From: a virus
Taxonomy: Duplodnaviria; Heunggongvirae; Uroviricota; Caudoviricetes
Length of the DNA stretch: 10,628 nucleotides
Reading direction: 5' to 3' (one strand)
IMG/VR virus record: IMGVR_UViG_2547132488_000018
Coordinates: 1-10,628 of that record
Shown: positions 1-10,628 of the stretch, piece by piece
Layout of the letters: each line of letters starts with the position of its first letter
Numbering within the stretch: the stretch's first letter is position 1
Made by a program: the position numbers and the translations under genes
The notes under the pieces: model-generated
What the model was told of the DNA's origin: nothing
Databases searched by the model: none
What the model saw: the letters and a program-made list of their open reading frames with translations, nothing else

Positions 1-127
1 CTGCAGTTCTCTGGAGTCACAGGCCCATTTCAGATCCTGTACCGCCTTAGCTTTCTTGATCATCCATTCGTAAATTTCATCATCGGTATAACCTGGCGCG
101 ATGATGACGGGTTCTGGTTTCTGCATA
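1..127 (-). CDS. Hypothetical protein, 5' portion only (start codon at 125-127, continues past window start)
   Basis: Reverse complement of 1-127 begins ATG and reads MQKPEPVIIAPGYTDDEIYEWMIKKAKAVQDLKWACDSRELQ with no stop; GAGGAA Shine-Dalgarno about 7 nt upstream on the minus strand (complement of 131-136). Not in the ORF track because it is truncated. Confidence 0.4.
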
Positions 128-315
128 TTGATTCCTCGCAGTACTGTTTCCCCTTAACGCCGGGGGGGCGGAACAAAAACCTGCTGCATAGTTAAAGTTG
201 AACCCTGCCGTCATGTTCTTACGCCTCGGGCTGGCTACTTACCCCCTGACCACTGCCTGGTAACTCGAAGTATTGCCCTGCGTTCTGTGGGGCGGGGTGG
301 GTTGGTGGAAATAAT

Positions 316-358
316 CTACAATTAAAAACTGTTTTGTGTCAACAGTTTTTAATTGTAG
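316..358. promoter_or_regulatory. Perfect 18-bp inverted repeat with 7-bp spacer; putative distal operator sharing a half-site with the repressor/cro intergenic palindrome
   Basis: CTACAATTAAAAACTGTT (316-333) + TTGTGTC + AACAGTTTTTAATTGTAG (341-358), exact reverse complements. Core AAAAACTGT / ACAGTTTTT recurs at 1354-1390. Confidence 0.4.
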
Positions 359-366
359 AGCTGGGC

Positions 367-392
367 AAAAAAACTCCCTCGAATGAGGGAGT
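367..392 (-). terminator. Rho-independent terminator for the leftward repressor-antitoxin-toxin operon
   Basis: Stem ACTCCCTC (373-380), loop GAAT, stem GAGGGAGT (385-392); on the minus strand the hairpin is followed by a U-run (complement of A-run 367-373). Lies about 17 nt past the parE-like stop at 409. Confidence 0.5.
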
Positions 393-408
393 ATGAAAAT
401 TGTTCAGT

Positions 409-696
409 TCAGATAGGGAAGGGAAATTGTCGGCGGGCATGCACAATATTTGCAATTTCAATGCTTGAAGCTGCTACTCGGTACAAAACGATATAATTAG
501 GGTGAACCACAATTTCCCGCAAACCGGATACTCGATCACTTGGCGGATATAGATATGGATGCTCGGAGAGGGCTAAAACAGACGTTTCAATACGTATTTT
601 TAGTCTGCGTGCTGCAGGAATATTTTCCTTAGCAATATAGGCTACGATCTGACGCAAATCATCGCGAGCAGATGGTAGCCATAAAATGGGTAACAT
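409..696 (-). CDS. parE2: ParE/RelE-superfamily type II toxin (ParE2-like)
   Basis: 95-aa ORF (MLPILWLPSARDDLRQIVAYI...VHPNYIVLYRV...IVHARRQ) with a ParE-like residue pattern; its start overlaps the upstream antitoxin stop by 1 nt (ATGA coupling). Family assignment is from recalled motifs, not a search. Confidence 0.75.
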   Translation of the reverse strand: MLPILWLPSARDDLRQIVAYIAKENIPAARRLKIRIETSVLALSEHPYLYPPSDRVSGLREIVVHPNYIVLYRVAASSIEIANIVHARRQFPFPI

Positions 697-887
697 TACT
701 CGCTCCTGTTAGTTACAGCAATTTGAGCAATAAGATTTTCTATTTCAGCCATTACCTCGTCATGTGGAATTGAGGGACGAGGGTCTGCAAGGCTTGACGC
801 CACTTTAGCGCGCAACCATTCGTTGTAACTGTTTTCTTGTTCGGTAGTTTCGAATTCTGAAACTATCGGAGAAAGGGCTGTACTCAT
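696..887 (-). CDS. paaA2: Small antitoxin, PaaA2-like (63 aa)
   Basis: 63-aa ORF immediately upstream of and coupled to the ParE-like gene; the size and position match the PaaA2 antitoxin of the paaR2-paaA2-parE2 module described in E. coli O157:H7. Confidence 0.65.
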   Translation of the reverse strand: MSTALSPIVSEFETTEQENSYNEWLRAKVASSLADPRPSIPHDEVMAEIENLIAQIAVTNRSE

Positions 888-914
888 GGCATAACTCCTC
901 TTCTTGTACAGTGG

Positions 915-1316
915 TCACGCCCGGCGGCTTTTTTGTGCCGCCAACCACCGGGCAATGGTTTCTTCCATTGATTTTTTCTTGTCTTTGATCTCTTGAAGCA
1001 TTTTTTCTTGGTCTTCCTCTGGAAACGCACTAAAAGCCTGAAGCAGTTCGCGTTGGCGAGGACCAATTTTCATCGTGTCAGGGGTGAAAATTTGCTCCCC
1101 CTCTTCAGGTGGCAATAAAAACCAATGCAATGGATGCCCTGTAACCTCAACCAGTTTATCCAAACTTGAGGCTTTAGGTGTAGCCTTACCGCTGACCCAT
1201 TGTTGAACAGTTTGTTGTGTCACACCAATTCTACGGGCCAGCTCAGCCTGGCTCCATCCAGTTTCCTGAAGAAGCTTGCTGATTCTGTACATAGATACTT
1301 CTAGAGCGTTCATCAT
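915..1316 (-). CDS. paaR2: XRE-family helix-turn-helix transcriptional repressor (PaaR2-like, CI-analog position)
   Basis: 133-aa ORF with a classic HTH (SQAELARRIGVTQQTVQQWVSGKATP); first gene of the leftward operon and divergent from the cro-like gene. No obvious Shine-Dalgarno upstream of the ATG at 1314-1316, so possibly leaderless. Confidence 0.7.
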   Translation of the reverse strand: MMNALEVSMYRISKLLQETGWSQAELARRIGVTQQTVQQWVSGKATPKASSLDKLVEVTGHPLHWFLLPPEEGEQIFTPDTMKIGPRQRELLQAFSAFPEEDQEKMLQEIKDKKKSMEETIARWLAAQKSRRA

Positions 1317-1337
1317 TATTCAATTTTACAGGTAAAT

Positions 1338-1413
1338 ACTGTTAAAAGCATCACAATAAAAAACTGTTGATCATATACAGTTTTTTATTGTAGGCTTTGC
1401 CTGTAGTTTTTTA
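1338..1413. promoter_or_regulatory. Divergent promoter/operator region between repressor and cro-like genes
   Basis: Inverted repeat CAATAAAAAACTGT (1354-1367) / ACAGTTTTTTATTG (1377-1390) with 9-bp spacer, plus further ACTGTT/CTGT motifs at 1338-1348 and 1401-1413. AGGAGG Shine-Dalgarno at 1414-1419 precedes the ATG at 1426. Confidence 0.5.
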
Positions 1414-1425
1414 GAGGAGGGCAAA

Positions 1426-1698
1426 ATGCTAGATAGCACTCGCGAAAAAATTAGGCAGAAATACACTCAAGCTGAAATAGGTCGTTATATGGGGGTCGCT
1501 CAACAGACTGTTTGGCAATGGTTTAGCTTTGGCGTTCCCCCAAAGCAGGTAATTCCGTTATGTCAGCTAATGAAGTGGGAAGTTACCCCGCATGAAATTC
1601 GCCCTGATATTTATCCTAACCCAACCGACGGGCTGCCTTGTGGAAATAAGTGTATGGCGAATGAATCACTGGCGGTGAACAATGAAAATCACCCCTGA
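1426..1698 (+). CDS. ydaS: Cro/YdaS-like HTH regulator
   Basis: 90-aa ORF with HTH (YMGVAQQTVWQWFSFG) and a C-terminal HEIRPDIYP motif recalled from YdaS-family proteins; strong Shine-Dalgarno; first rightward gene. Confidence 0.65.
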   Translation: MLDSTREKIRQKYTQAEIGRYMGVAQQTVWQWFSFGVPPKQVIPLCQLMKWEVTPHEIRPDIYPNPTDGLPCGNKCMANESLAVNNENHP

Positions 1699-2203
1699 AC
1701 AGGTTTGTGAGGCTCTGGATGCCTGGGTATGCCGACCAGGAATGACACAGGAGCAGGCGACGATATTAATCACGGAAGCATTCTGGGATCTGAAAGAACG
1801 CCCAAACATCGATGTTCAACGCGTCACGTTTGATGATGGCGCGGTTGATCAACGGGCGCTGGGCGTTAACCGGGTGAAGATATTCGAACGCTGGAAAGCT
1901 ATCGACACCAGGGATAAGCGTGAAAAATTCACGGCGCTGATTCCGGCAATTATGGAGGCGATCCGGTTCAGTGATTTCAGGTTGTATTGTGAAATTACTG
2001 ACGGAAAAAGCATTACATACATGATCGCCGGGTTAAACAAAGAATATGGCGATGTGGTGGAGTCCGGGCTGCTTTTTGCGGATCCAGCTGTTGTGGAACG
2101 TGAGACTGACGAGCTTATAGAAAAAGCCATTGCTTTCAAGCGTGCGTATCGTCAGCAATATCAACAAAAAGCCGGATGGAATTATGAGTCTTCTTTTTGC
2201 TGA
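1682..2203 (+). CDS. ydaT: YdaT-like protein (functional CII analog in CP-933P-type prophages)
   Basis: 173-aa ORF overlapping the cro-like gene by 17 nt; second rightward gene; the KREKFTALIPAIMEAI segment resembles what I recall of YdaT. Identity rests on recall and synteny. Confidence 0.55.
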   Translation: MKITPEQVCEALDAWVCRPGMTQEQATILITEAFWDLKERPNIDVQRVTFDDGAVDQRALGVNRVKIFERWKAIDTRDKREKFTALIPAIMEAIRFSDFRLYCEITDGKSITYMIAGLNKEYGDVVESGLLFADPAVVERETDELIEKAIAFKRAYRQQYQQKAGWNYESSFC

Positions 2204-3149
2204 ACGCCCACTGGTTATTAACACGCAGCTGGCGATGAAAATTGGTCTGAACGAAGCCATCGTGTTGCAGCAGCTGCATTACTGGTTGAGAGATACCGGT
2301 TCCGGCATGGAATGTGATGGTGTTCGCTGGATTTATAACACAACGGAACAATGGCTGGAACAGTTCCCGTTCTGGTCAGAGTCAACGTTAAAACGCGCAT
2401 TTGCAAGTCTGAAAGCGCTGGGGCTTTTGCGTTGTGAAAAGCTCAACAAATCAAAGCGTGACATGACTAATTTTTACACGATTAATTACGAGAGCGAGCT
2501 TTTAGATGGTGGCAAAGTGAGCGAATCCATCAGGTCAAAATGCGCCGCTCCATCAGGTCAAAATGACACGATGGAAGAGGCCAAAATGGCACGCTCCATT
2601 GGCTCAAAACGACCCAATGTCATCGGGTCAAAATGGCCTGATGATCTTACAGAGAATACAACAGAGATTACTACAGAGAATAAAAACACTTCTCGTCCGG
2701 AAGCTTCGCAACCGGACCAGCAGGCGGCTGAACAGGATTTTTTAACCCGACACCCTGACGCGGTTGTGTTCAGTGCGAAAAAACGCCAGTGGGGAAACCA
2801 GGAGGATTTAGCGTGTGCGCAGTGGATCTGGGGACGAATCGTGAGTCTTTACGAACAGGCTGCCAGCGATGATGGTGAGATCACGCGACCGAAAGAACCC
2901 AACTGGACTGCATGGGCCAATGACGTGCGCACAATGCGGATGCTTGATGGCAGAACTCACAGACAAATTTACGAAATGTTTGGTCGGGTACAGCGGGATC
3001 CATTCTGGGTAAAAAACGTCATGAGCCCGTCAAAGCTTCGCGAAAAATGGGACGAACTGGTCATCCGCCTGGGGCGTTCGCCTGTACAGCGTTGTGTGAA
3101 TCACATTTCTGAACCGGACACCGAAATTCCGCCGGGCTTCAGGGGGTAA
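2181..3149 (+). CDS. Phage replication initiation protein (lambda O-like / replisome organizer) with internal origin
   Basis: Winged-helix-like N-terminal domain, a low-complexity linker encoded by the iteron DNA, and a C-terminal domain. Start chosen at ATG 2181 (MSLLFAERP...) with GGATGG upstream; the ORF track's upstream in-frame start at 2130 is the alternative. Confidence 0.6.
   Translation: MMSLLFAERPLVINTQLAMKIGLNEAIVLQQLHYWLRDTGSGMECDGVRWIYNTTEQWLEQFPFWSESTLKRAFASLKALGLLRCEKLNKSKRDMTNFYTINYESELLDGGKVSESIRSKCAAPSGQNDTMEEAKMARSIGSKRPNVIGSKWPDDLTENTTEITTENKNTSRPEASQPDQQAAEQDFLTRHPDAVVFSAKKRQWGNQEDLACAQWIWGRIVSLYEQAASDDGEITRPKEPNWTAWANDVRTMRMLDGRTHRQIYEMFGRVQRDPFWVKNVMSPSKLREKWDELVIRLGRSPVQRCVNHISEPDTEIPPGFRG
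2526..2690. repeat. Replication origin: five iterons at 23-bp spacing followed by an AT-rich tract
   Basis: TCCATCAGGTCAAAATG at 2526-2542 and 2549-2565 (identical), degenerate copies at 2572-2588, 2595-2611 and 2620-2636, then AT-rich 2641-2690 with ACAGAGAAT-type repeats. Same architecture as ori-lambda inside gene O. Confidence 0.6.
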
Positions 3150-3189
3150 GTGTTAATTTCTGGTCATGAGGTAATTTTCAGGAGGGCTT

Positions 3190-3612
3190 GTGGCAAAAGT
3201 ATTTACACAAGAAGAGCGGGAAAAAATTAAGGGGCTGGTTGTTGAACTTGTACGCCAGAGCGGGCGCGAGACGTTACGACAACTGGAAGCTAAGACAGGT
3301 GCGACAAGATATTTAATAAGCGTTCTTGCCAGAGAGCTGGTTGCCAGTGGCGATGTATACAACTCTGGTTACGGGTTATTCCCGTCTGAACAGGCGCGTA
3401 AGGACTGGCAAAACGCCCGCAAAAAACTCTCGAGGGCAAAGCTGAAGAAAACATCTGTGGTTGATCCGGACCTTATCTGGTCGTTACCAGACGGAGAAAT
3501 ACGCCGCTACGACAGGCGTCAGAACATAATCTGTCGCGAGTGCCGGAAAAGCAAGGTTATGCAGCGTGTGCTGGCGTTTTATCAGGGTAATTTTCAGGAG
3601 GTGATGACGTGA
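3190..3612 (+). CDS. Hypothetical protein (GTG start)
   Basis: 140-aa ORF; GTG start at 3190 preceded by AGGAGG (3181-3186); its stop overlaps the next gene's GTG start (GTGA at 3609-3612). Confidence 0.55.
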   Translation: MAKVFTQEEREKIKGLVVELVRQSGRETLRQLEAKTGATRYLISVLARELVASGDVYNSGYGLFPSEQARKDWQNARKKLSRAKLKKTSVVDPDLIWSLPDGEIRRYDRRQNIICRECRKSKVMQRVLAFYQGNFQEVMT

Positions 3613-3908
3613 GGGTGAGAGTCTATATTGCCGGTCCAATGACCGGGTATAAAAATTTCAACCGTGAGGCGTTCCACAAGGCGGAAGAGGAACTGAAACG
3701 GGAAGGGCATACAGTCTTAAACCCGGCAGTACTTCCAGACGGGCTGACACAGCCACACTACATGGATATTTGCATGGCAATGATTCGTTGTGTGGATGCG
3801 ATTTACATGCTGAAAGGCTGGCAGCGGTCAGCAGGCGCTAAGGCAGAACTGGCGCTGGCGGAGAAACTGGGGCATGCAGTTATTTTCCAGGAGGCAAACA
3901 GTGAGTAA
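3609..3908 (+). CDS. DUF4406 / nucleoside 2-deoxyribosyltransferase-like protein
   Basis: 99-aa ORF whose N-terminal VYIAGPMTG motif is characteristic of the nucleoside 2-deoxyribosyltransferase-like fold; GTG start with AGGAGG at 3595-3600. Confidence 0.55.
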   Translation: MRVRVYIAGPMTGYKNFNREAFHKAEEELKREGHTVLNPAVLPDGLTQPHYMDICMAMIRCVDAIYMLKGWQRSAGAKAELALAEKLGHAVIFQEANSE

Positions 3909-4365
3909 CCAATGGCGACCAGATATTTGTCCTATAACCGGACGTGCATTTTTCATGTGGATTGAGCATCCGAAATTGGGCAATGTGCCGACGTATGGCG
4001 GCCCATTAGACAGTTACACCATTCCAACAAAGGACAGCGATGGTGAGTTTTCGTGTGAGCGTTACGATCATGATTTCGGTGGCTGGGTAGAAAGCGAATG
4101 TCTTGGGTTATATCTGATTGATGATAAAGAACAATGCAGAGTCTACGAACTCGAGGAACGCGTTAAAGAGCTGGAAGCGCGGGAAGTTCATTTGCCGACT
4201 CGCTACGGTCTTCGATATGGACACCCGATAAATGATGATGAACGCCACGTCATGATACCTAAAGAAAATGGCTGCTGGCTTTATCTGGCTGACTTAGAAC
4301 ATGAACTACGTGTTGCTGGCATTCATATCAAAGGAGAGGAGTATGGAAATAAAACCAGAAGATGA
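3901..4365 (+). CDS. Hypothetical phage protein
   Basis: ORF 3874-4365 trimmed to the in-frame GTG at 3901 (MSNQWRPD...), which has AGGAGG at 3887-3892 and overlaps the upstream stop by 8 nt. Confidence 0.5.
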   Translation: MSNQWRPDICPITGRAFFMWIEHPKLGNVPTYGGPLDSYTIPTKDSDGEFSCERYDHDFGGWVESECLGLYLIDDKEQCRVYELEERVKELEAREVHLPTRYGLRYGHPINDDERHVMIPKENGCWLYLADLEHELRVAGIHIKGEEYGNKTRR

Positions 4366-4699
4366 GTTAAGTAATATTGTTTTATTTCCGGCAAAAGAGG
4401 ATGACCCACGTAATCAGGTTAATTTTCTTTATGAGCCATCGGAAAGACCATATTGCCATCACGCTTCTGTCCGGGTTGACGAAAAAGAGCGTCAGGTCCG
4501 CTGTAAAATCTGCGGTGCAGTTGTGGAGCCGTTTGACTGGATGCTCTCAGTGGCGAAAAGAGAAACCAGACTGGCAGATGATGTAAGGCTATTGCGCCAG
4601 GAGGAACAGGAAAGGCGGAAAAATATAGAAAAGTTAATTCAGATTGAGCGTAACGCGAAAGCGCGGATACGCAGGGCGACAAAATCCAGAACTGAATAA
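4343..4699 (+). CDS. Hypothetical protein with CxxC pair and charged coiled-coil-like C-terminus
   Basis: ORF 4301-4699 trimmed to ATG 4343 (MEIKPEDEL...) with GGAGAGGAG Shine-Dalgarno; contains CHH...CKIC. Confidence 0.5.
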   Translation: MEIKPEDELSNIVLFPAKEDDPRNQVNFLYEPSERPYCHHASVRVDEKERQVRCKICGAVVEPFDWMLSVAKRETRLADDVRLLRQEEQERRKNIEKLIQIERNAKARIRRATKSRTE

Positions 4700-4794
4700 T
4701 TAAATTTAGCACTGTTAAAAATTTTATCCTTAACCGGAGGGATTTCTGCACCCTCAGAACATCAGGAGGCCGCCCTAAAGGGCGGTGATAAATA

Positions 4795-5271
4795 ATGCAA
4801 GACATCAAAGAAAATATCAGACAACAGCTTTACGGGTTTTATATTGCTTATGATTTGTGGCTGAGTAATGGGGCGAAACCAGGTGGGGTGTTTTCTCGAA
4901 ATTATGGTTTATGCGCCAATCTTTTCGATTATCTCACATCAATCGGTACCTCCAGCGAAGCGGCACTGGAACAATTACACGCTGATTTCAGAAGTGCCGG
5001 GCTGTATGAGGTGTTGCCATTTAACGAGAGTAATGGGCATTACCATGAAGAAAAAAGGAACAACATGTGCCATATGAACCCGTCGCGGGTGGCGTGGGTC
5101 AGGGCGCAGATGGTACAGGCAGTGCCGGACGGACTGGTTAAGGCTGTACGCTTCTATGAACAGGTAAAGTGTGAGAATCCGCCAGCTGAAACCGGAGCAT
5201 GGAAAGACGCTGTTGACTGGGTACTCAAGGAGGCCTGCCAGGCTGTAAACATTGGCAACAAAGGAGAGTGA
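4795..5271 (+). CDS. Hypothetical phage protein
   Basis: 158-aa ORF; AGGAGG at 4764-4769 and GGTGA nearer the ATG; its stop overlaps the downstream start region. Confidence 0.55.
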   Translation: MQDIKENIRQQLYGFYIAYDLWLSNGAKPGGVFSRNYGLCANLFDYLTSIGTSSEAALEQLHADFRSAGLYEVLPFNESNGHYHEEKRNNMCHMNPSRVAWVRAQMVQAVPDGLVKAVRFYEQVKCENPPAETGAWKDAVDWVLKEACQAVNIGNKGE

Positions 5272-5272
5272 T

Positions 5273-5491
5273 GTGCCTACATTATTCAGAAAAGAATATC
5301 CGCGAAAAAGTAGAGCGACAGAATTTTTGTTTCTCATTCTGTTTATCGTGTTGATGATACCGATATCCCCGCTAATTTTTGTCTGGGCAATCGGGAAAAT
5401 AATTGAGCCAGTTATTGAATTGTATAACGACGTGGTATGGGCGTCGTTCAACACACTGCACAATAAAATTAATCCGTATAAGGAAGGTTGA
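5273..5491 (+). CDS. Small hydrophobic (single-transmembrane) protein
   Basis: In-frame GTG at 5273 with AAGGAGAG at 5261-5268; hydrophobic core FLFLILFIVLMIPISPLIFVWAIG. The ORF track's TTG at 5252 is the alternative start. Confidence 0.4.
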   Translation: MPTLFRKEYPRKSRATEFLFLILFIVLMIPISPLIFVWAIGKIIEPVIELYNDVVWASFNTLHNKINPYKEG

Positions 5492-5492
5492 A

Positions 5493-5873
5493 ATGACCAT
5501 TACCACAAAAGAGCAGCAGAGATACAGTAAACAAGATTTAGGAGACGCTCTGGATTTTTATCTTTTTGAAGGTGATTTTGGTGCGCCATTCGATATTGAG
5601 TTATCGAATAAAATCGTTACCTCTCGCGGTGAATATACATGTCACATATGCGCCGGGAAAATCTCAAAGGGTGAAATACACCGCAGCACAACATGGAAAT
5701 TTGATGGCGAGCTTATGTCCTATAGATGCTGCAATGAGTGCTGTGTAGCGATGGTTAAAAGCGTCAATTATGAATATGAAGACAAAGACCCGGTAGAAGC
5801 ACGTTATGCGCTTGGGGAGGAGCGCAGGAGAGCAAAAACGCTGGAAAACCACTTGCGCACTAAAGGAGATTGA
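5493..5873 (+). CDS. Cys-rich (putative zinc-binding) hypothetical protein
   Basis: ORF 5403-5873 trimmed to ATG 5493 (MTITTKEQQ...) with AAGGAAGG Shine-Dalgarno; contains CHICAGK and CCNECC. Confidence 0.55.
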   Translation: MTITTKEQQRYSKQDLGDALDFYLFEGDFGAPFDIELSNKIVTSRGEYTCHICAGKISKGEIHRSTTWKFDGELMSYRCCNECCVAMVKSVNYEYEDKDPVEARYALGEERRRAKTLENHLRTKGD

Positions 5874-5874
5874 T

Positions 5875-6255
5875 ATGGCACTGACGAAAAAACAACGTGC
5901 AGAACTGCGCATGAAGTTCGGCGGTCGCTGTGCTTATTGCGGCTGCGAACTTGGCGAAAAGTGGCATGCAGACCATGTAAAACCGGTCATTCGTTTTGCT
6001 GGAAATATGCTTCACCAGGAACGTGACGATATATCCAACATGGTTCCGGCATGCCACCCATGCAATCTGCACAAGCATTGCAGTAGCCTGGAAGATTATC
6101 GGCGAATTATCAGTGATGGTCGTCGTGAATTCCTTGCGTCCGGGAAAGGCAAAGCGCTGGTTCGTATGGGATTGGTTGAAATGAAATCTGACCCGGTTGT
6201 GTTCTGGTTTGAAAAATATCAAGAAGGGAGGCTACAGCATGACCACTTTCACTGA
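5875..6255 (+). CDS. HNH endonuclease
   Basis: ORF 5806-6255 trimmed to ATG 5875 (MALTKKQRAEL...) with AAAGGAG Shine-Dalgarno; HNH signature CAYCGCEL...WHADHVKPV...NMVPACHPCNLHK. Confidence 0.7.
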   Translation: MALTKKQRAELRMKFGGRCAYCGCELGEKWHADHVKPVIRFAGNMLHQERDDISNMVPACHPCNLHKHCSSLEDYRRIISDGRREFLASGKGKALVRMGLVEMKSDPVVFWFEKYQEGRLQHDHFH

Positions 6256-6579
6256 CAAAGAAATGATTGAACAAAGAAACGTGGCGTTTTGATTTGCGAG
6301 TCGGGTTCAAAGAGGCTTTCCGCGTACTGCGGCCACACGGAGTTCTCATATTCAAATAGAACGATATGCAGATTTTAGCGTTCACTGACGTGAAACCAGC
6401 AATTGGCCAGCGCACCGGGAAAACGACACAATCCACTGGATTATTTTTGTTAAAGGCGGTTCGGTATGAAAATCAACTTAACAGAGTCAGCACCAGTAAC
6501 CGATAATGAACACGATCAGAGCCTATTGGCGCAGAGGGAATGATTTGAAATAGTAAGATCATTGATTGCTAAGTAAATT

Positions 6580-6603
6580 GTGCTGTAGTGGATACTACAG
6601 CAC
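6580..6603 (-). terminator. Perfect 10-bp stem / 4-nt loop hairpin at the 3' end of the minus-strand island
   Basis: GTGCTGTAGT GGAT ACTACAGCAC, 9 nt beyond the stop of the minus-strand gene ending at 6612. No clean U-run follows, so terminator function is uncertain. Confidence 0.35.
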
Positions 6604-6611
6604 TTCAGAAG

Positions 6612-7013
6612 TCACTTACTATTATTTTTCGCCTTGAGCATCGCGTTGTAGTACGCTATATGAACACTACCGAGCTTTGGATAAGGGACATTATTTTTTC
6701 TTGGTGCCTTAGAGAAAAACTCTGTAGTAAAAGGCAGGATAGATGTTCTGGCTAAGTCAAATTTAGTATCGTAGCTTAACCCAGATAGACCAAAAACATC
6801 ATCGCCATCAGCTTTTTGAATAAGAAACTCTGATGGGTAGAGTTTGTGTGTTTTTTGGCTCGTACCGAATGCAACTATGATTTCATGCTTTAGTTTCGAT
6901 ACACCTAATACCATACCTGGTCTCATTTTGGGAGTATCTCCCCCCCATTCTTCAGATGGTTGAAACCAAACAATATCGCCAGTCTTTGGCAATGGTTTTA
7001 TTTTCGAATGCAT
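6612..7013 (-). CDS. PemK/MazF-like putative toxin
   Basis: 133-aa ORF; the N-terminal GDIVWFQPSEEWGGDTPKMRPGMVLGVSKLKHEIIVAFGTSQ matches the MazF/Kid pattern (G-D/E-I, K/R-RP-x-V/L-L/V, then a hydrophobic strand ending TS). AT-rich codon usage; contains a G7 tract on the coding strand (complement of 6940-6946). Confidence 0.5.
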   Translation of the reverse strand: MHSKIKPLPKTGDIVWFQPSEEWGGDTPKMRPGMVLGVSKLKHEIIVAFGTSQKTHKLYPSEFLIQKADGDDVFGLSGLSYDTKFDLARTSILPFTTEFFSKAPRKNNVPYPKLGSVHIAYYNAMLKAKNNSK

Positions 7014-7021
7014 TTTTATAC

Positions 7022-7297
7022 CTACAATAGCATTTCGAAACTCTCATCCGGCGTTTGGTTAGTTTTCGATCTTTCATGTAGTGTCCGGAATTGAGCTTCG
7101 GTCAAGGGCCCATCATCTTGCTCATAAGCCGGGATGTATTTTTCCACTAAGTTTACGAGTGCAAAATGCATGAGGTCTGTTTTACTCATACCAGTAGCTT
7201 TCATTAGTTTTTCAAAGGATTCAGAACTGATACCGTTGATACCATCTTCTTCTTTGAATCTAAGGAGGAAGCTGTCAGGCTTTTTCATGCGTGACAT
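7022..7297 (-). CDS. Putative antitoxin / small DNA-binding protein (possible ribbon-helix-helix)
   Basis: 91-aa ORF 8 nt upstream of the MazF-like gene; AAGGAG Shine-Dalgarno on the minus strand; predicted strand-helix-helix pattern and an acidic C-terminal tail. The fold is inferred, not demonstrated. Confidence 0.45.
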   Translation of the reverse strand: MSRMKKPDSFLLRFKEEDGINGISSESFEKLMKATGMSKTDLMHFALVNLVEKYIPAYEQDDGPLTEAQFRTLHERSKTNQTPDESFEMLL

Positions 7298-7650
7298 AAG
7301 GACTCCTTAATGTTTAATTTCCGAACTGTATCTAAATCAAAAAGATAGTTATGCGTGTTTTGACCTACTTTAGACAGTGCTTTCACTTCAAGCATTTTGG
7401 ATCTTATGAGCTTATACATAATCGCAAGTTTGAAGACTATTAAGCGTGTAATTAACAAAATTAGCATAATCAATGGGATGCTAATTTTGAATTTTTCATT
7501 TTTTACTGAAACAGTTTGGGGAAGATTTTGCCCCCCCCGAACTCGAAGGAAGTCAAAGAAATGGCCATGTTTTTCAACTATATCTATTAAAAGTTGTTCA
7601 ATTCTTTCGGTGAGCATTAACATATGCTTAACATCTGTGCTTAAGGTCAT
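7285..7650 (-). CDS. Hypothetical small protein with hydrophobic segment; first gene of the island operon
   Basis: 121-aa ORF with an AAGGA Shine-Dalgarno; overlaps the next gene by 13 nt; hydrophobic stretch IPLIMLILLITRLIVFKLAIM; contains a G8 tract on the coding strand (complement of 7531-7538). Confidence 0.4.
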   Translation of the reverse strand: MTLSTDVKHMLMLTERIEQLLIDIVEKHGHFFDFLRVRGGQNLPQTVSVKNEKFKISIPLIMLILLITRLIVFKLAIMYKLIRSKMLEVKALSKVGQNTHNYLFDLDTVRKLNIKESLCHA

Positions 7651-7683
7651 AATGAATCCTTGTCGATAGAGATTTTCCCAATA

Positions 7684-7712
7684 AAGATATCAAAATGATA
7701 TCTTCTTTTCAA
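7684..7712 (-). promoter_or_regulatory. Candidate sigma70 promoter with overlapping palindromic operator for the island operon
   Basis: On the minus strand: -35 TTGAAA (complement of 7707-7712), 17-bp spacer, -10 TATCTT (complement of 7684-7689). Palindrome AGATATC-AAAAT-GATATCT (7685-7703) overlaps the spacer and -10. Confidence 0.35.
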
Positions 7713-7976
7713 GGTGGTTTTACTTTGGGAGCGAATGCAACAACTTCTTGCTATGTGTTGAGATCAATTGATACTAGGTGTCGAAAATCTTGGTATGAGG
7801 CTGTATGTTCTTTAGTTGTATATCATTGTTCAGGACTACAGCGTTAAGAAGTACACGAAAGACAAGCAAGCTGTGCGCTGCGGTCATGCTGTGCCGTCGC
7901 CGTTCGTTGGGTGTTGGTGAGGGCTAATTTGGCGGAGCTATACCAGTCGAAACGAATAGCAGCCTGACCTATAATT

Positions 7977-8002
7977 CCCTCGATAATCCGAGGGTATTTT
8001 TT
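7977..8002 (+). terminator. Hairpin plus T-run immediately upstream of the ATG at 8003; also sequesters its Shine-Dalgarno
   Basis: CCCTCG (7977-7982), loop ATAATC, CGAGGG (7989-7994), then TATTTTTT. A TATAAT hexamer sits at 7970-7975 and the GAGGG Shine-Dalgarno for the 8003 gene lies in the 3' arm. Confidence 0.4.
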
Positions 8003-8248
8003 ATGTTTGATTTCAACATCGCAGCAAAATTAAAAGAAGAGCAGGACAAGGTTAGCGTTGATCTTGCAGCGTCCGGCGTTGCGTACAAGGAGAGCCTTAA
8101 TCAGCCAGTAGTTGCCGAACACGTAGCAAGAGAGCTGCCGGAACATCTGCGCGAATACTTCATGGACCGCGTTCGCCTTAGCCTGACACTGCCAAAAGCA
8201 TCCGATCCGTGTTATCTGGATATGGCAGTGCAGAACGAGAAAAAATAA
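8003..8248 (+). CDS. Hypothetical phage protein (81 aa)
   Basis: ORF with GAGGG Shine-Dalgarno 8 nt upstream; its stop overlaps the next ATG (TAATG at 8246-8250). Confidence 0.55.
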   Translation: MFDFNIAAKLKEEQDKVSVDLAASGVAYKESLNQPVVAEHVARELPEHLREYFMDRVRLSLTLPKASDPCYLDMAVQNEKK

Positions 8249-8502
8249 TGGGCTGCCTGATTGTAAGCGGTATCAACTTTTACATCTTGGCCGAAGGCGA
8301 GGCATATCCAGACCCGAATTCTGATGATACGTATTTCGGTGCTTATGCTGTGTTCCCGTCAGAAGGTAAATGAGTAGCACAAAAATACTTCTGGACTGGT
8401 AACTGGCACGACATAACTGACCAGATATTTAACACCGAAAACGAGGCGTTTAACTTCACTTACGAATACGCATTTGCGCCGGAAAATTGCCACAAATTTT
8501 AA
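8248..8502 (+). pseudogene. Small ORF interrupted by an in-frame TGA at 8371-8373 (nonsense pseudogene or readthrough candidate)
   Basis: ATG at 8248 reads 41 codons to TGA (8371-8373); the same frame then continues open for 42 more codons to TAA at 8500-8502, directly followed by a strong terminator. Confidence 0.4.
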
Positions 8503-8527
8503 CCCGCTTTGGCGGGTTTTGTTTTTT
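8503..8527 (+). terminator. Rho-independent terminator
   Basis: CCCGC (8503-8507), loop TTTG, GCGGG (8512-8516), followed by TTTTGTTTTTT (8517-8527). Confidence 0.65.
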
Positions 8528-8599
8528 CCTGGCATTCTGGTTTACAATCCTCACGCTAGCCTGAACAACTGGCACCTGCTGCGCCAGCAGAGACAACCG

Positions 8600-8878
8600 A
8601 TGGCGCACGATACCAAATTGCACAATTCTAATGATTCTGCCGTCCTTGCCAGCAGGCACGGGCGGTGTTCTCACGCATTCAAATATGACTGGTATCAGCA
8701 TGACCCCTGCACTGAAGAACAGGCCGAATGGCTGATTCAGAACTACCGCAGACGTGGGTATGAGTTTAAGAAAGCCCTTAGTCTCGACTACCGTCACTGG
8801 ATAATCTCAGTCAGATTGCCTTACTCCGAATGCCCACCGCGTCCGTCCCGTACATTCCAGCAACGCACCTGGAGGTAA
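8600..8878 (+). CDS. Hypothetical protein (92 aa)
   Basis: ORF 8474-8878 trimmed to the first ATG after the terminator (8600, MAHDTKL...); weak Shine-Dalgarno; a possible promoter TTGTTT-17 bp-TACAAT lies at 8519-8547; its stop abuts the next gene's start. Confidence 0.4.
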   Translation: MAHDTKLHNSNDSAVLASRHGRCSHAFKYDWYQHDPCTEEQAEWLIQNYRRRGYEFKKALSLDYRHWIISVRLPYSECPPRPSRTFQQRTWR

Positions 8879-8879
8879 C

Positions 8880-9935
8880 GTGCGGGTATTACTTCGACCT
8901 GTTCTGGTACCGGAACTCGGGCTGGTGGTCGTTAAGCCGGGCCGTGAATCCATGCCGGTATTCCACAATACCCGGGTACTGGTGGAGCCGGAACCGAAAA
9001 GCATGCGTAATCTGCCGTCCGGGGTCGTTCCTGCCGTTCGCCAGCCGCTGGTGGAAGACAAAACATTGCTGCCGTTCTTCAGTAACGCACGGGTAATTCG
9101 TGCTGCTGGTGGTGCTGGTGCATTGTCTGACTGGCTGTTGCGCCATATTAAATCCTGCCAGTGGCCACACGGCGATTATCATCACAGCGAAACCGTTATT
9201 CACCGTTATGGTACCGGCGCAATGGTGTTGTGCTGGCACTGCGACAACCAGCTGCGTGACCAGACATCCGAATCACTCGAGCAACTTGCTCATCAAAACC
9301 TGTCAGCATGGATGATTGACGTCATACGCCATGCAATGAATGGCACGCAGGAGCGGGAATTATCGCTGGCTGAATTATCCTGGTGGGCGGTCTGCAATCA
9401 GGTGGCGGACGCGCTACCAGAGGCAGCATTACGTCGTTCTCTGGGGTTACGTGCGGAAAAAATTCGCTCAGTATACCGCGAGAGCGACATCGTACCGGGA
9501 GAGCAGACCGCCACCAGCATACTGAAGCAGCGCACAAAAAATCTTGCGCCGGTGCCTCACGCCCACCAGCAAAACCCGCCACAGGAAAAGACGGTGGTCA
9601 GCATTGCCGTTGATCCGGAGTCACCGGCTCAGTATCTCCAGCGCCAGAAATCACAACGAGAAGAGATGCCTGTATACACGCGCTGGGTAAAAACGCAGAA
9701 ATGCATGACGTGCGGTAATCAGGCAGATGATCCGCATCACATCATTGGTCATGGACTGGGAGGGATGGGAACAAAGGCTGATGATTTGTTTGTTATTCCG
9801 CTGTGCCGTAAATGTCATAACGAACTGCACGCCGGGGTAAAAGATTTTGAAGAAAAACACGGCAGCCAGCTGTTGTTGCTGATTCGTTTTTTAATGCACG
9901 CGAGAAATTCGGGTGTCCTGAAGTGGAAAGCATGA
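8880..9935 (+). CDS. DUF968-like phage protein (YdfU-like) with C-terminal Cys/His HNH-like motif
   Basis: 351-aa ORF; GTG start with GGAGG at 8871-8875; C-terminal CMTCGN...HHIIGHGLGG...CRKCHNELH; sits immediately upstream of rusA, as ydfU-family genes do in E. coli cryptic prophages. Confidence 0.55.
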   Translation: MRVLLRPVLVPELGLVVVKPGRESMPVFHNTRVLVEPEPKSMRNLPSGVVPAVRQPLVEDKTLLPFFSNARVIRAAGGAGALSDWLLRHIKSCQWPHGDYHHSETVIHRYGTGAMVLCWHCDNQLRDQTSESLEQLAHQNLSAWMIDVIRHAMNGTQERELSLAELSWWAVCNQVADALPEAALRRSLGLRAEKIRSVYRESDIVPGEQTATSILKQRTKNLAPVPHAHQQNPPQEKTVVSIAVDPESPAQYLQRQKSQREEMPVYTRWVKTQKCMTCGNQADDPHHIIGHGLGGMGTKADDLFVIPLCRKCHNELHAGVKDFEEKHGSQLLLLIRFLMHARNSGVLKWKA

Positions 9936-10301
9936 ATGACTGAACGGATAGAATTTGTTTTGCCTTACCCGCCGACGGTGAATACCTACTGGCGACGTCA
10001 TGGCAATACGTATTTCATCTCGGAGGCCGGAAAGCGTTATCGCCGTGATGTGGCGCTAATTGTTCGCCAGCAGCGGCTGAAATTAAACCTGTCCGGAAGG
10101 CTGGCGATAAAGATTATTGCAGAGCCACCGGATAAGCGCCGTCGTGACCTGGACAATATTCTGAAAGCACCACTGGATGCGCTGACGCATGCCGGACTTC
10201 TCATAGACGACGAGCAGTTTGATGAAATCAATATTGTGCGCGGTCAGCGCGTTCCTGGGGGGCGGCTGGGCGTGAAGATTTACAAAATTGAGAGTGAGTG
10301 A
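9936..10301 (+). CDS. rusA: Crossover junction endodeoxyribonuclease RusA (Holliday junction resolvase)
   Basis: 121-aa ORF with RusA hallmarks (LPYPPTVNTYWRRHG..., RRRDLDNILKAPLDALTHAG..., DDEQF); start directly follows the upstream stop. Confidence 0.85.
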   Translation: MTERIEFVLPYPPTVNTYWRRHGNTYFISEAGKRYRRDVALIVRQQRLKLNLSGRLAIKIIAEPPDKRRRDLDNILKAPLDALTHAGLLIDDEQFDEINIVRGQRVPGGRLGVKIYKIESE

Positions 10302-10309
10302 TCGTAAAT

Positions 10310-10628
10310 ATGATATACCCGGAAATTACAGGCAAAAGCGGCGAGCATTTACGTCTAAAAACGCTGGAAGCCGTCTGGATCCAGGGGAAATTACGGATGT
10401 GGGGGCGTTGGTCGTATATAGGTGGTGGCAAAACAGGAAATATGTTCAATCAGTTGCTGGCATCCAAAAAACTGACAAAAACCGCGATCAATGAAGCCCT
10501 GCGTAGACTCAGGGAGTCAGGGATTGATAAACCAGAGCTGGAAGCATTCTTGCGAGAGATGATCGCTGGCAGACAGAAGAGCTGGTTGTCTCACTGTACT
10601 GATGCAGAGGCGTTACGCATTGATGGGG
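10310..10628 (+). CDS. Putative late-gene antiterminator Q, N-terminal part (truncated by window end)
   Basis: ATG at 10310 is open to the window end (MIYPEITGKSGEHLRLKTLEAVWIQGKLRMWGRWSYIGGGK...); position right after rusA is where Q sits in lambdoid phages; loose WG-W and LL-SK resemblance to recalled QuuD-type Q proteins. Confidence 0.4.
   Translation, partial: MIYPEITGKSGEHLRLKTLEAVWIQGKLRMWGRWSYIGGGKTGNMFNQLLASKKLTKTAINEALRRLRESGIDKPELEAFLREMIAGRQKSWLSHCTDAEALRIDG

Follow-up and report, generated by a model that had tools for sequence, protein, structure and literature searches.

The 10,628-nucleotide stretch analyzed here (the window; positions 1 to 10,628 of the IMG/VR record IMGVR_UViG_2547132488_000018, a virus of the Caudoviricetes) holds at 2505-2690 the segment from which a Rac/lambda-like temperate phage very probably starts its vegetative (theta-type) replication. 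The segment lies inside the linker-coding part of the phage's own initiator gene, which encodes a mosaic, O-like protein of 321 amino acids (Table 1), and it consists of an array of iterons followed by an A-rich tract. This predicted origin has the build of ori-lambda and of the RepA_N origin of pSK41. The open reading frame (ORF) of the initiator belongs to PHROG 391 ("replication initiation O-like," E 4e-95), and the protein matches no family of Pfam or NCBIfam. At least 80% of the gene is found in 1849 of the 5426 complete Escherichia coli genomes, where the product is mostly labeled "hypothetical protein," and near relatives of the initiator (91% nucleotide identity) occur in the phages HannyBb, PhiR42_1, and mEp460.

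Iterons and the A-rich tract

Five partly palindromic units of 23 bp follow one another at 2528-2550, 2551-2573, 2574-2596, 2597-2619, and 2621-2643, with spacings of 23, 23, 23, and 24 bp. An earlier note on this DNA described five iterons at exact 23-bp phasing: the number of copies stands and the phasing is near-exact. It also reported two identical copies among the five of a 17-bp motif, and the 17-mer TCCATCAGGTCAAAATG is indeed present without any change at 2526-2542 and at 2549-2565. All five copies of the core GSYCAAAAYG in the 10.6-kb window are in the array and on the plus strand (five copies are reached in none of 200 shuffles). With a lag of 23 bp, the self-identity of the array is 0.645. 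In 2000 codon shuffles of the gene it never rises above 0.51, and the rest of the window stays at or below 0.44. The iteron consensus, CATCAGGTCAAAATGACCCGATG, is self-complementary at 16 of 23 positions in units 2, 4, and 5. On the left side of the array, the position of a sixth, degenerate unit (Table 1) holds a good copy in the homologues of Klebsiella, Citrobacter, and Enterobacter (L007, L014, and L017). The array occupies 36-48% of the initiator gene. Consensus searches of the window for DnaA boxes and for IHF sites returned no site, and a plasmid-like, DnaA-assisted origin model was dropped for that reason; neither a DnaA box nor an IHF consensus is involved in the mechanism proposed below.

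After the iterons comes, as the earlier note had it, an AT-rich tract with short direct repeats of its own. The G+C content of 2644-2695 is 0.33 (0.50 for the whole gene). The tract is A-rich (24 A and 9 T), and three copies of ACAGAGAWTA start at 2649, 2661, and 2673 with a 12-bp spacing (reached in none of 200 shuffles). The least stable 40-mer of the gene is 2647-2686 (-44.3 kcal/mol, for a mean of -55.6 and a standard deviation of 3.5), within the top 1.2% of the window. We read the tract 2644-2690 as the DNA-unwinding element, and melting would take place at 2647-2686, judging from the thermodynamics and the extreme conservation of the DNA.

Clustered CAGAGA repeats with a spacing of 11-12 bp are found just past the array in 33 of the 41 loci examined, including loci of Staphylococcus, Peribacillus, Clostridia, and a metagenome-assembled genome (MAG) of Anaerolineales. 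The copies spaced by 11 bp sit in differing reading frames and the DNA motif is kept (L040, L059, L064, L066, and L071). A-rich repeats of 11-12 bp are present at the same position in other E. coli prophage initiators (ACAGATAAAGAT, in the "replisome organizer" type and in Rac ydaU), and the lambda counterpart is ACAAAAGA. Possibly, the CAGAGA repeats at 11/12 bp act in the origin through their sequence (as a single-strand site, for example) and not just as AT-rich DNA; such an element would be conserved from Proteobacteria as far as Firmicutes. As a separate observation, the CAGAGA motif after the iterons (2649-2682 in the window; L040, L056, L059, L066, L071, L075, L078, and L087) is a conserved DNA motif beyond AT-richness. 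A GAG/GAA codon test on the CAGAGA repeats is circular, since the motif itself defined the region, and it carries no weight here.

The successive iterons are read in frames 2, 1, 0, 2, and 2, yielding unrelated peptides. Over 49 unique alleles (91-100% identity), the diversity (pi) at codon positions 1, 2, and 3 is 0.020, 0.016, and 0.160 in the N-terminal domain (N-domain) and 0.052, 0.056, and 0.162 after the origin; the corresponding values are 0.035, 0.043, and 0.047 in the iterons and 0.005, 0.010, and 0.008 in the AT tract. The flanks thus display the usual coding pattern, the iterons are without codon periodicity, and the AT tract hardly varies at all, with a synonymous-site diversity in iterons and tract 3-20 times below that of the flanks. 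A 23-bp array followed by TACAGAGAATAC-type repeats is found also in mEp460_4F5 (73% at the amino acid level), a Klebsiella phage (51%), and the Pantoea phage AH07 (39%). Among 81 complete homologous ORFs, drawn from one-genome-per-species and phage collections, the best self-similarity lag is 22-24 bp in 61, mostly at ~30-48% of the gene; these homologues come from Enterobacterales, Pseudomonas, Acinetobacter, Comamonas, Staphylococcus, Limosilactobacillus, and Clostridia. Since the 23-bp period passes through three frames, codon periodicity is absent, and the array is kept in diverged homologues, the repeats are constrained as DNA and not as peptide. The earlier note had named conservation of the repeats solely at the protein level as the finding that would refute the origin; in the homologues, the DNA itself is conserved, and the origin reading stands.

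The mosaic initiator and related origins

In the AlphaFold2 model of the initiator (mean predicted local distance difference test, pLDDT, of 57), a winged helix at residues 10-108 is followed by a disordered linker at 109-178 (pLDDT 25-30), a helical domain at 179-298 (65-80), and a disordered tail. The segment 2505-2690 encodes residues 108-169, inside the modeled disorder, which agrees with the earlier placement of the iterons and the AT tract in the linker-coding part. The top structural matches of the N-domain are the initiators of RepA_N plasmids. In sequence, the N-domain has no match in Pfam (and no significant one to RepA_N or to Phage_rep_O, PF04492), and BLASTP of the N-terminal half against lambda O gives no similarity. 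The N-domain family (2184-2519, residues 1-112) comprises 10,186 cluster representatives at 50% identity (E<=1e-3) and has no Pfam-A model. Its members are joined to Phg_2220_C, DnaB_2, or lambda-O-type C-terminal domains (C-domains), with two copies of the N-domain in some proteins. Gram-positive homologues (L086, L055, L060, and L061) terminate with other tails, ...KDDLPF (SSB-tip-like, in a Lactobacillus MAG) or ...DFRFDDET (Bacillus/Neobacillus), which suggests that host-specific docking peptides are general in the family.

The start of the predicted recognition helix and the iteron core vary together. The helix WSEST[LI]KR pairs with the core GGTCAAAATGACC in E. coli, Klebsiella, Trabulsiella, Xenorhabdus, and Staphylococcus caprae, and WSxDTVKR pairs with GGGCAAATTGCCC or GTGCAAATTGCAC in Pantoea, Citrobacter, Pseudomonas, Comamonas, Acinetobacter, and Thermoanaerobacter. 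WSEKTVKR and WTGKTIQR pair with GGACAnnTTGTCC (a Pantoea MAG, L030, and Mixta, L033), and WGIATVKR with GGATCAAAATGATCC (Limosilactobacillus). Because of the dyad symmetry of the iterons, the fold of the domain, and this co-variation between helix and iteron, the N-domain would be the part of the protein that binds the iterons.

The description of the initiator as "O-like" in the earlier note applies to the C-domain, which matches residues 135-270 of lambda O (BLASTP, E 5e-26, 34% identity over 148 amino acids), but not to the N-domain, without lambda O similarity or Pfam match. A profile of 16 homologues searched against the PDB gives no structure match for the C-domain, and the DnaT match of the tail (see below) is also lost. 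Some E. coli genes share only the part from ~2683 on, fused there to another N-domain with 15-bp repeats of its own (TTGACCCCTCAA); other genes share just the last 63 nucleotides. The module boundary falls directly after the AT tract; N-domain, iterons, and AT tract therefore move together between genes as a single specificity module, a situation known from lambdoid phages.

The ori-lambda architecture was invoked in the earlier note, and the comparison with ori-lambda finds every element that is open to an in silico check. In both origins, there are direct repeats with internal dyad symmetry, a central TCAAAAYGA, and a spacing of 20-24 bp; an AT-rich tract with an A-rich strand is found downstream from the iterons (G+C content of 0.26 in lambda and 0.33 here). 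The initiators share a homologous C-domain, the repeats are in the linker-coding part, and the genes belong to a cro-cII-O early operon. The four annotated 18-bp iterons of lambda (ATCCCTCAAAACGAGGGA) start 20, 24, and 23 bp apart and occupy 39-48% of O (36-48% of the gene here). There are also differences. The units here are five to six abutting ones of 23 bp instead of four of 18 bp with spacers, and the AT tract is, unlike that of lambda, built of ACAGAGAWTA repeats. The N-domain of lambda O is a Phage_rep_O domain (E 6e-36), whereas the initiator here is unmatched by that family. Lambda has a P gene and its O protein ends with ...TDWIYGVDL; here, there is no P gene and the protein ends with a DnaT-type tail.

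The RepA_N initiators (pSK41 Rep and pTZ2162 RepA; PDB 4pta, 4pql, 4pt7, and 5kbj) are structurally the closest to the N-domain. In that family, the Rep boxes lie midway along the rep gene in a linker-coding stretch that is dispensable, and the C-domain of pSK41 Rep binds the DnaG primase (PMC5703833). The central position of the binding repeats, in a linker-coding segment of the initiator gene, is thus common to both; however, RepA_N elements are plasmids, whereas the present element is a phage, with a lambda-O-type C-domain.

In the Rac prophage of E. coli K-12, the ydaU-ydaV(-ydaW) module has the same order of repressor, ydaS/cro-like, ydaT/cII-like, initiator, and DUF977/ydaW-type genes. 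This module probably covers the region of oriJ. YdaU ends with the same tail (...VNTVSLPDSAIPPGFRG) and its gene has an A-rich tract of the ACAGATAAAGAT type in the middle. On the other hand, YdaU is a DUF1376 protein with other N- and C-domains and other repeats, and Rac has ydaV while the window has none. Loader-less iteron plasmids resemble the present system in having a single initiator gene, iterons, and an AT-rich tract, with a reliance on host DnaB-DnaC that is predicted for the present origin, and two initiators of such plasmids (IncX6 RepA and a Serratia Rep) have the same tail; unlike them, there is here no DnaA box, the origin is inside the gene, and the element is a phage.

In the mechanism that we propose, transcription from the early promoter on the cro side would yield the initiator (a step read from the gene order). 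Dimers of the winged-helix domain would bind the five to six palindromic 23-bp iterons and, with units ~2.2 helical turns apart and a central A-tract in each, the array should wrap into an O-some-like complex. The stress would then open the A-rich tract next to the iterons, where the duplex is least stable and the three ACAGAGAWTA repeats lie. In the last step, the weakest and taken from context only, the lambda-O-type C-domain and the DnaT-type peptide would bring the host DnaB via a DnaC-type loader; this loader would be the host DnaC for the phage of the window and the phage's own DnaC paralogue in the relatives with ydaV.

Other readings of the segment 2505-2690 have to be weighed. The repeats could belong to the protein level, as a repetitive low-complexity linker peptide without any function of the DNA: the region of iterons and tract does encode a disordered linker, and the CAGAGA repeats mostly translate, in one frame, as a recurrent T-E-x-T peptide. 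Yet, a period that is not divisible by three, with copies in three frames and unrelated peptides, the low variability of the third positions without codon periodicity, the CAGAGA copies at 11-bp spacing that keep the DNA motif in other frames, and the co-variation of the iteron core with the recognition helix leave next to no room for such a reading. Alternatively, the iterons bind the initiator but serve autoregulation, copy control (handcuffing), or incompatibility, or melting and loading take place elsewhere, for example at 2449-2488 or outside the gene. Plasmid iterons do both replication and control, and a second unstable stretch exists left of the array. That left stretch, however, is in the N-domain block with a normal coding-type diversity (pi 0.16 at codon position 3), whereas the right tract is nearly invariant and conserved across phyla; the iteron core is nowhere else in the window, promoter region included, and the layout matches two experimentally defined origins, those of lambda and pSK41. 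We regard this alternative as quite improbable. As for the conservation of 2644-2694, it might be that of a recombination linker at a module boundary and not of an unwinding element. The mosaic junction falls exactly there, and the window has other short boundary sequences that are conserved (GGTAATTTTCAGGAGG at 3170 and 3586, for example). But recombination cannot account for CAGAGA beside the iterons in homologues of Staphylococcus, Clostridia, and Anaerolineales with unrelated flanks, nor for the comparable A-rich 11-12-bp repeats that lambda, Rac ydaU, and the "replisome organizer" type have at this position. A linker role is therefore unlikely as the explanation, and the two roles are compatible with each other.

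Several points weigh against the segment as an origin. With 67% A+T, the tract 2644-2690 is AT-rich only to a moderate degree, and the second AT-rich stretch to the left of the array (2449-2488) has almost as low a stability, so that melting could also take place there. The architecture is not universal in the family, as no clear array is seen in the Bacillus/Neobacillus branch of the N-domain homologues. The searchable literature contains no experimental origin activity for this sequence or its close relatives, and the window may come from a prophage.

Helicase loading and the DnaT-type tail

The ORFs scanned across the window include no P-like, DnaC-like, or DnaB-like gene. The next gene after the initiator, as previously stated, encodes 140 amino acids, and the product belongs to DUF977. 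The earlier statement that no P/DnaC-like loader follows is therefore true within the window, but the loader is polymorphic in its presence or absence. Among 84 close relatives, the initiator is followed by DUF977 in 51, and a YdaV/DnaC-like gene is inserted after the same 321-amino-acid initiator in 28. The insertion or lack of ydaV directly after the same initiator allele is seen by comparing 3150-3189 with L096, L101, and 26 other viral loci. The loader-less order, initiator then DUF977/LygF, occurs in the sequenced phages HannyBb, PhiR42_1, and mEp460_ev081. A DUF977 homologue follows ydaV in 13 of the 28 relatives that carry it; DUF977 was considered as a hidden loader or adaptor and was rejected as a substitute of ydaV, as it stays downstream in those relatives. 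The DUF977 protein has no solved relative, and the resemblance of its N-terminal winged helix-turn-helix (wHTH) to PerC-type proteins is insignificant (BLASTP E 0.11). At the DUF977 position after a loader-less initiator, mEp460_4F5 and Pantoea AH07 have a small protein with a wHTH and a PerC domain (L006 3439-3927 and L008 2991-3425).

The initiator ends with a DnaT-type tail (Table 1), identical to the extreme C terminus of DnaT at 14 of the last 20 residues, IPPGFRG at the end included (BLASTP E 8e-8); the DnaT peptide pattern ...VN.VSEPD..IPPGFRG stands at the very end of the protein. In a phmmer search of the PDB, only the last 21 residues of DnaT chains are matched (2ru8, 6aep, and 9zbt_D). 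The rest of the initiator has no similarity to DnaT, with a score of 16.8 bits, in the tail only, for NCBIfam NF002770 (cut-off of 201 bits), and the N-terminal domain, the linker, and the three-helix bundle of DnaT have no detectable counterpart. DnaT is not sequence-specific and works at forks with PriA/PriB.

The same tail (...PD..IPPGFRG) ends at least seven unrelated types of phage initiators (Rac YdaU of DUF1376, the "replisome organizer" type, Gifsy-1 O, the SPN1S/PAT1 rep protein, POCJ13, and Klebsiella and Pantoea phages) and two plasmid initiators (IncX6 RepA and a Serratia Rep). The loci with this tail include L005, L004, and L170-L176. With tblastn of the tail in phage records, 47 of 47 matches are in replication-initiator genes or in host dnaT. 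The initiators with the tail are found alone or beside a DnaC-type gene (Rac YdaU-YdaV, Gifsy-1, POCJ13, PSS-15, and the 28 close relatives), like host dnaT-dnaC. Two homologues with a lambda-P-type loader next to them have a different tail, ...WNSPEAWENTL. A mutual exclusion of tail and loader (25 loci with the tail and none with a loader) was considered and is wrong, with ydaV beside the same initiator in 28 of the 84 relatives.

The resemblance to the DnaT tail is itself not new. There is the precedent of DopC, and relatives of the initiator carry the RAST label "Primosomal protein I"; on the alignments above, that label reflects a resemblance of the tail only. DopC, of the DopCE pair, has an O-like helix-turn-helix (HTH) N terminus and, by HHpred, a "DnaT_C" motif that replaces the usual lambda O C-domain (Brezellec et al. 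2017; PMC5509034). It is a domesticated chromosomal gene with DopE as its P-like partner, and according to its authors iterons are absent from DopC (PMC5509034). Unlike DopC, the present initiator keeps a lambda-O-type C-domain and iterons and is without a P-like partner.

The earlier note had supposed that helicase recruitment could rely on host factors or on the initiator's C terminus, and the DnaT-type tail is now a candidate for that role. Tentatively, and at somewhat less than even chances, the tail would engage a DnaC-type loader or the DnaB-DnaC complex, and the host DnaC would serve the loader-less origin. A broader proposal, which we hold more loosely, is that ...PD..IPPGFRG is a portable docking signal, common to unrelated phage and plasmid initiators and to DnaT, for the DnaC-type loader or DnaB of Enterobacterales. 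Some observations tell against such a role of the tail. The last 63 nucleotides are 95% identical across otherwise different genes, and part of the spread of the tail among E. coli prophages is thus shared DNA and not independent selection. The tail and loader counts come from small samples that are phylogenetically non-independent. In addition, the authors of the preprimosome structure favor the N-terminal domain of DnaT, not the tail, for the recruitment of DnaB/DnaC (PMC13377028). Our literature search on loader-less, "initiator-solo" phage origins found nothing.

The helicase might also arrive through the PriA-dependent primosome, with the tail holding the initiator to host PriA where the tract has melted and with PriA/PriB/DnaT/DnaC loading DnaB. 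Cryo-electron microscopy of the preprimosome shows PriA HD2/CTD as the docking site of the DnaT C-terminal domain, and the hydrophobic contact between the two is small (640 A^2); the same 2026 structural paper states that the recruitment of DnaB/DnaC by the restart preprimosome is unknown (PMC13377028). The tail is hydrophobic as well (IPPGF). On the other hand, the text of that paper does not place residues 160-179 of DnaT at the PriA interface, and an initiator on the DnaT site of PriA would compete with DnaT. Moreover, the tail recurs beside DnaC-type genes (dnaT-dnaC, ydaU-ydaV, Gifsy-1, and POCJ13) and ends plasmid initiators also. The families of those plasmid initiators contact DnaB directly. 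A route through PriA thus appears rather doubtful, and a contact of the tail with a DnaC-type loader or with DnaB-DnaC is our tentative reading of the last step.

Gene neighborhood and implications

The coordinates of the features are collected in Table 1. The initiator is gene four in an early region with the typical layout of a temperate phage. The two genes before it match the Pfam families "YdaS toxin" and "YdaT toxin" and occupy the cro and cII positions; the PHROGs name the product of the second a CII-like activator, and the Pfam family names conflict with the positional roles.

Table 1. Features of the initiator gene and of the early region in the window (. = no strand)
Feature	Position	Strand	Basis or remark
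HTH repressor	915-1316	-	early region
YdaS/Cro-like gene	1426-1698	+	cro position
YdaT/CII-like gene	1682-2203	+	cII position
Initiator gene, mosaic O-like protein, 321 amino acids	2184-3149	+	ORF list, ATG at 2184; PHROG 391
Winged-helix DNA-binding domain, residues 10-108	2211-2507	+	AlphaFold2
Degenerate leftmost (sixth) iteron	2505-2527	+	repeat family D3; 13/23 consensus matches, counted by eye
Five iterons, partly palindromic 23-bp units	2528-2643	+	repeat search
AT-rich tract with A-rich strand, predicted DNA-unwinding element	2644-2690	+	G+C content, duplex stability, conservation
Mosaic junction	2683-2694	.	megablast matches from query position 500; L002 sequence; alignment A1
Helical C-domain, residues 179-298, homologue of the lambda O C-domain	2718-3077	+	BLASTP, AlphaFold2
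DnaT-type C-terminal tail, VQRCVNHISEPDTEIPPGFRG	3084-3146	+	phmmer against the PDB, BLASTP
DUF977 gene, 140 amino acids	3190-3612	+	Pfam DUF977, E 3e-31; PHROG 142 "Ren-like exclusion protein"
DUF4406 gene	3609-3908		early region, after DUF977

The 16-bp direct repeat GGTAATTTTCAGGAGG, at 3170-3185 and 3586-3601, brackets the DUF977 gene and contains a ribosome-binding site; it may be a cassette-boundary sequence for the exchange of modules. Further downstream, a nin-like region contains two HNH endonuclease genes (5806-6255 and 8880-9935, plus strand) and a RusA resolvase gene (9936-10301, plus strand). The ORF of 81 amino acids at 8003-8248 (plus strand) is a phage-borne holE-like gene (PHROG 1105, DNA polymerase III theta subunit, E 6e-27). 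Three ORFs of 133, 91, and 121 amino acids are on the minus strand at 6612-7650, amid the rightward early region and without PHROG match; the trio may be a moron or cargo island. The Rfam scan of the window gives no match. A sigma-70 promoter scan of 800-4000 gives no promoter, and that scan is uninformative.

As a predicted origin, the design described here is a textbook one in a new sequence family: it is of the lambda/RepA_N style and embedded in the initiator gene, and the initiator family is very common but poorly annotated. The segment provides a precise origin annotation for an initiator present in about one-third of the complete E. coli genomes, and the annotation extends to a winged-helix family with over 10,000 sequence clusters, for which Pfam has no model. 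Across phyla, the co-variation between recognition helix and iteron amounts to a ready-made specificity code for the initiator family. The same allele is found next to a DnaC-like gene in some relatives and lacks it in others, a simple genetic setting in which to look for the binding partner of the tail, and the identity of that partner bears on how DnaT hands over DnaB-DnaC to the restart primosome. A portable docking signal, if true, would explain the loader-less ("solo") phage origins and would point to the contact of the preprimosome that recruits DnaB-DnaC.

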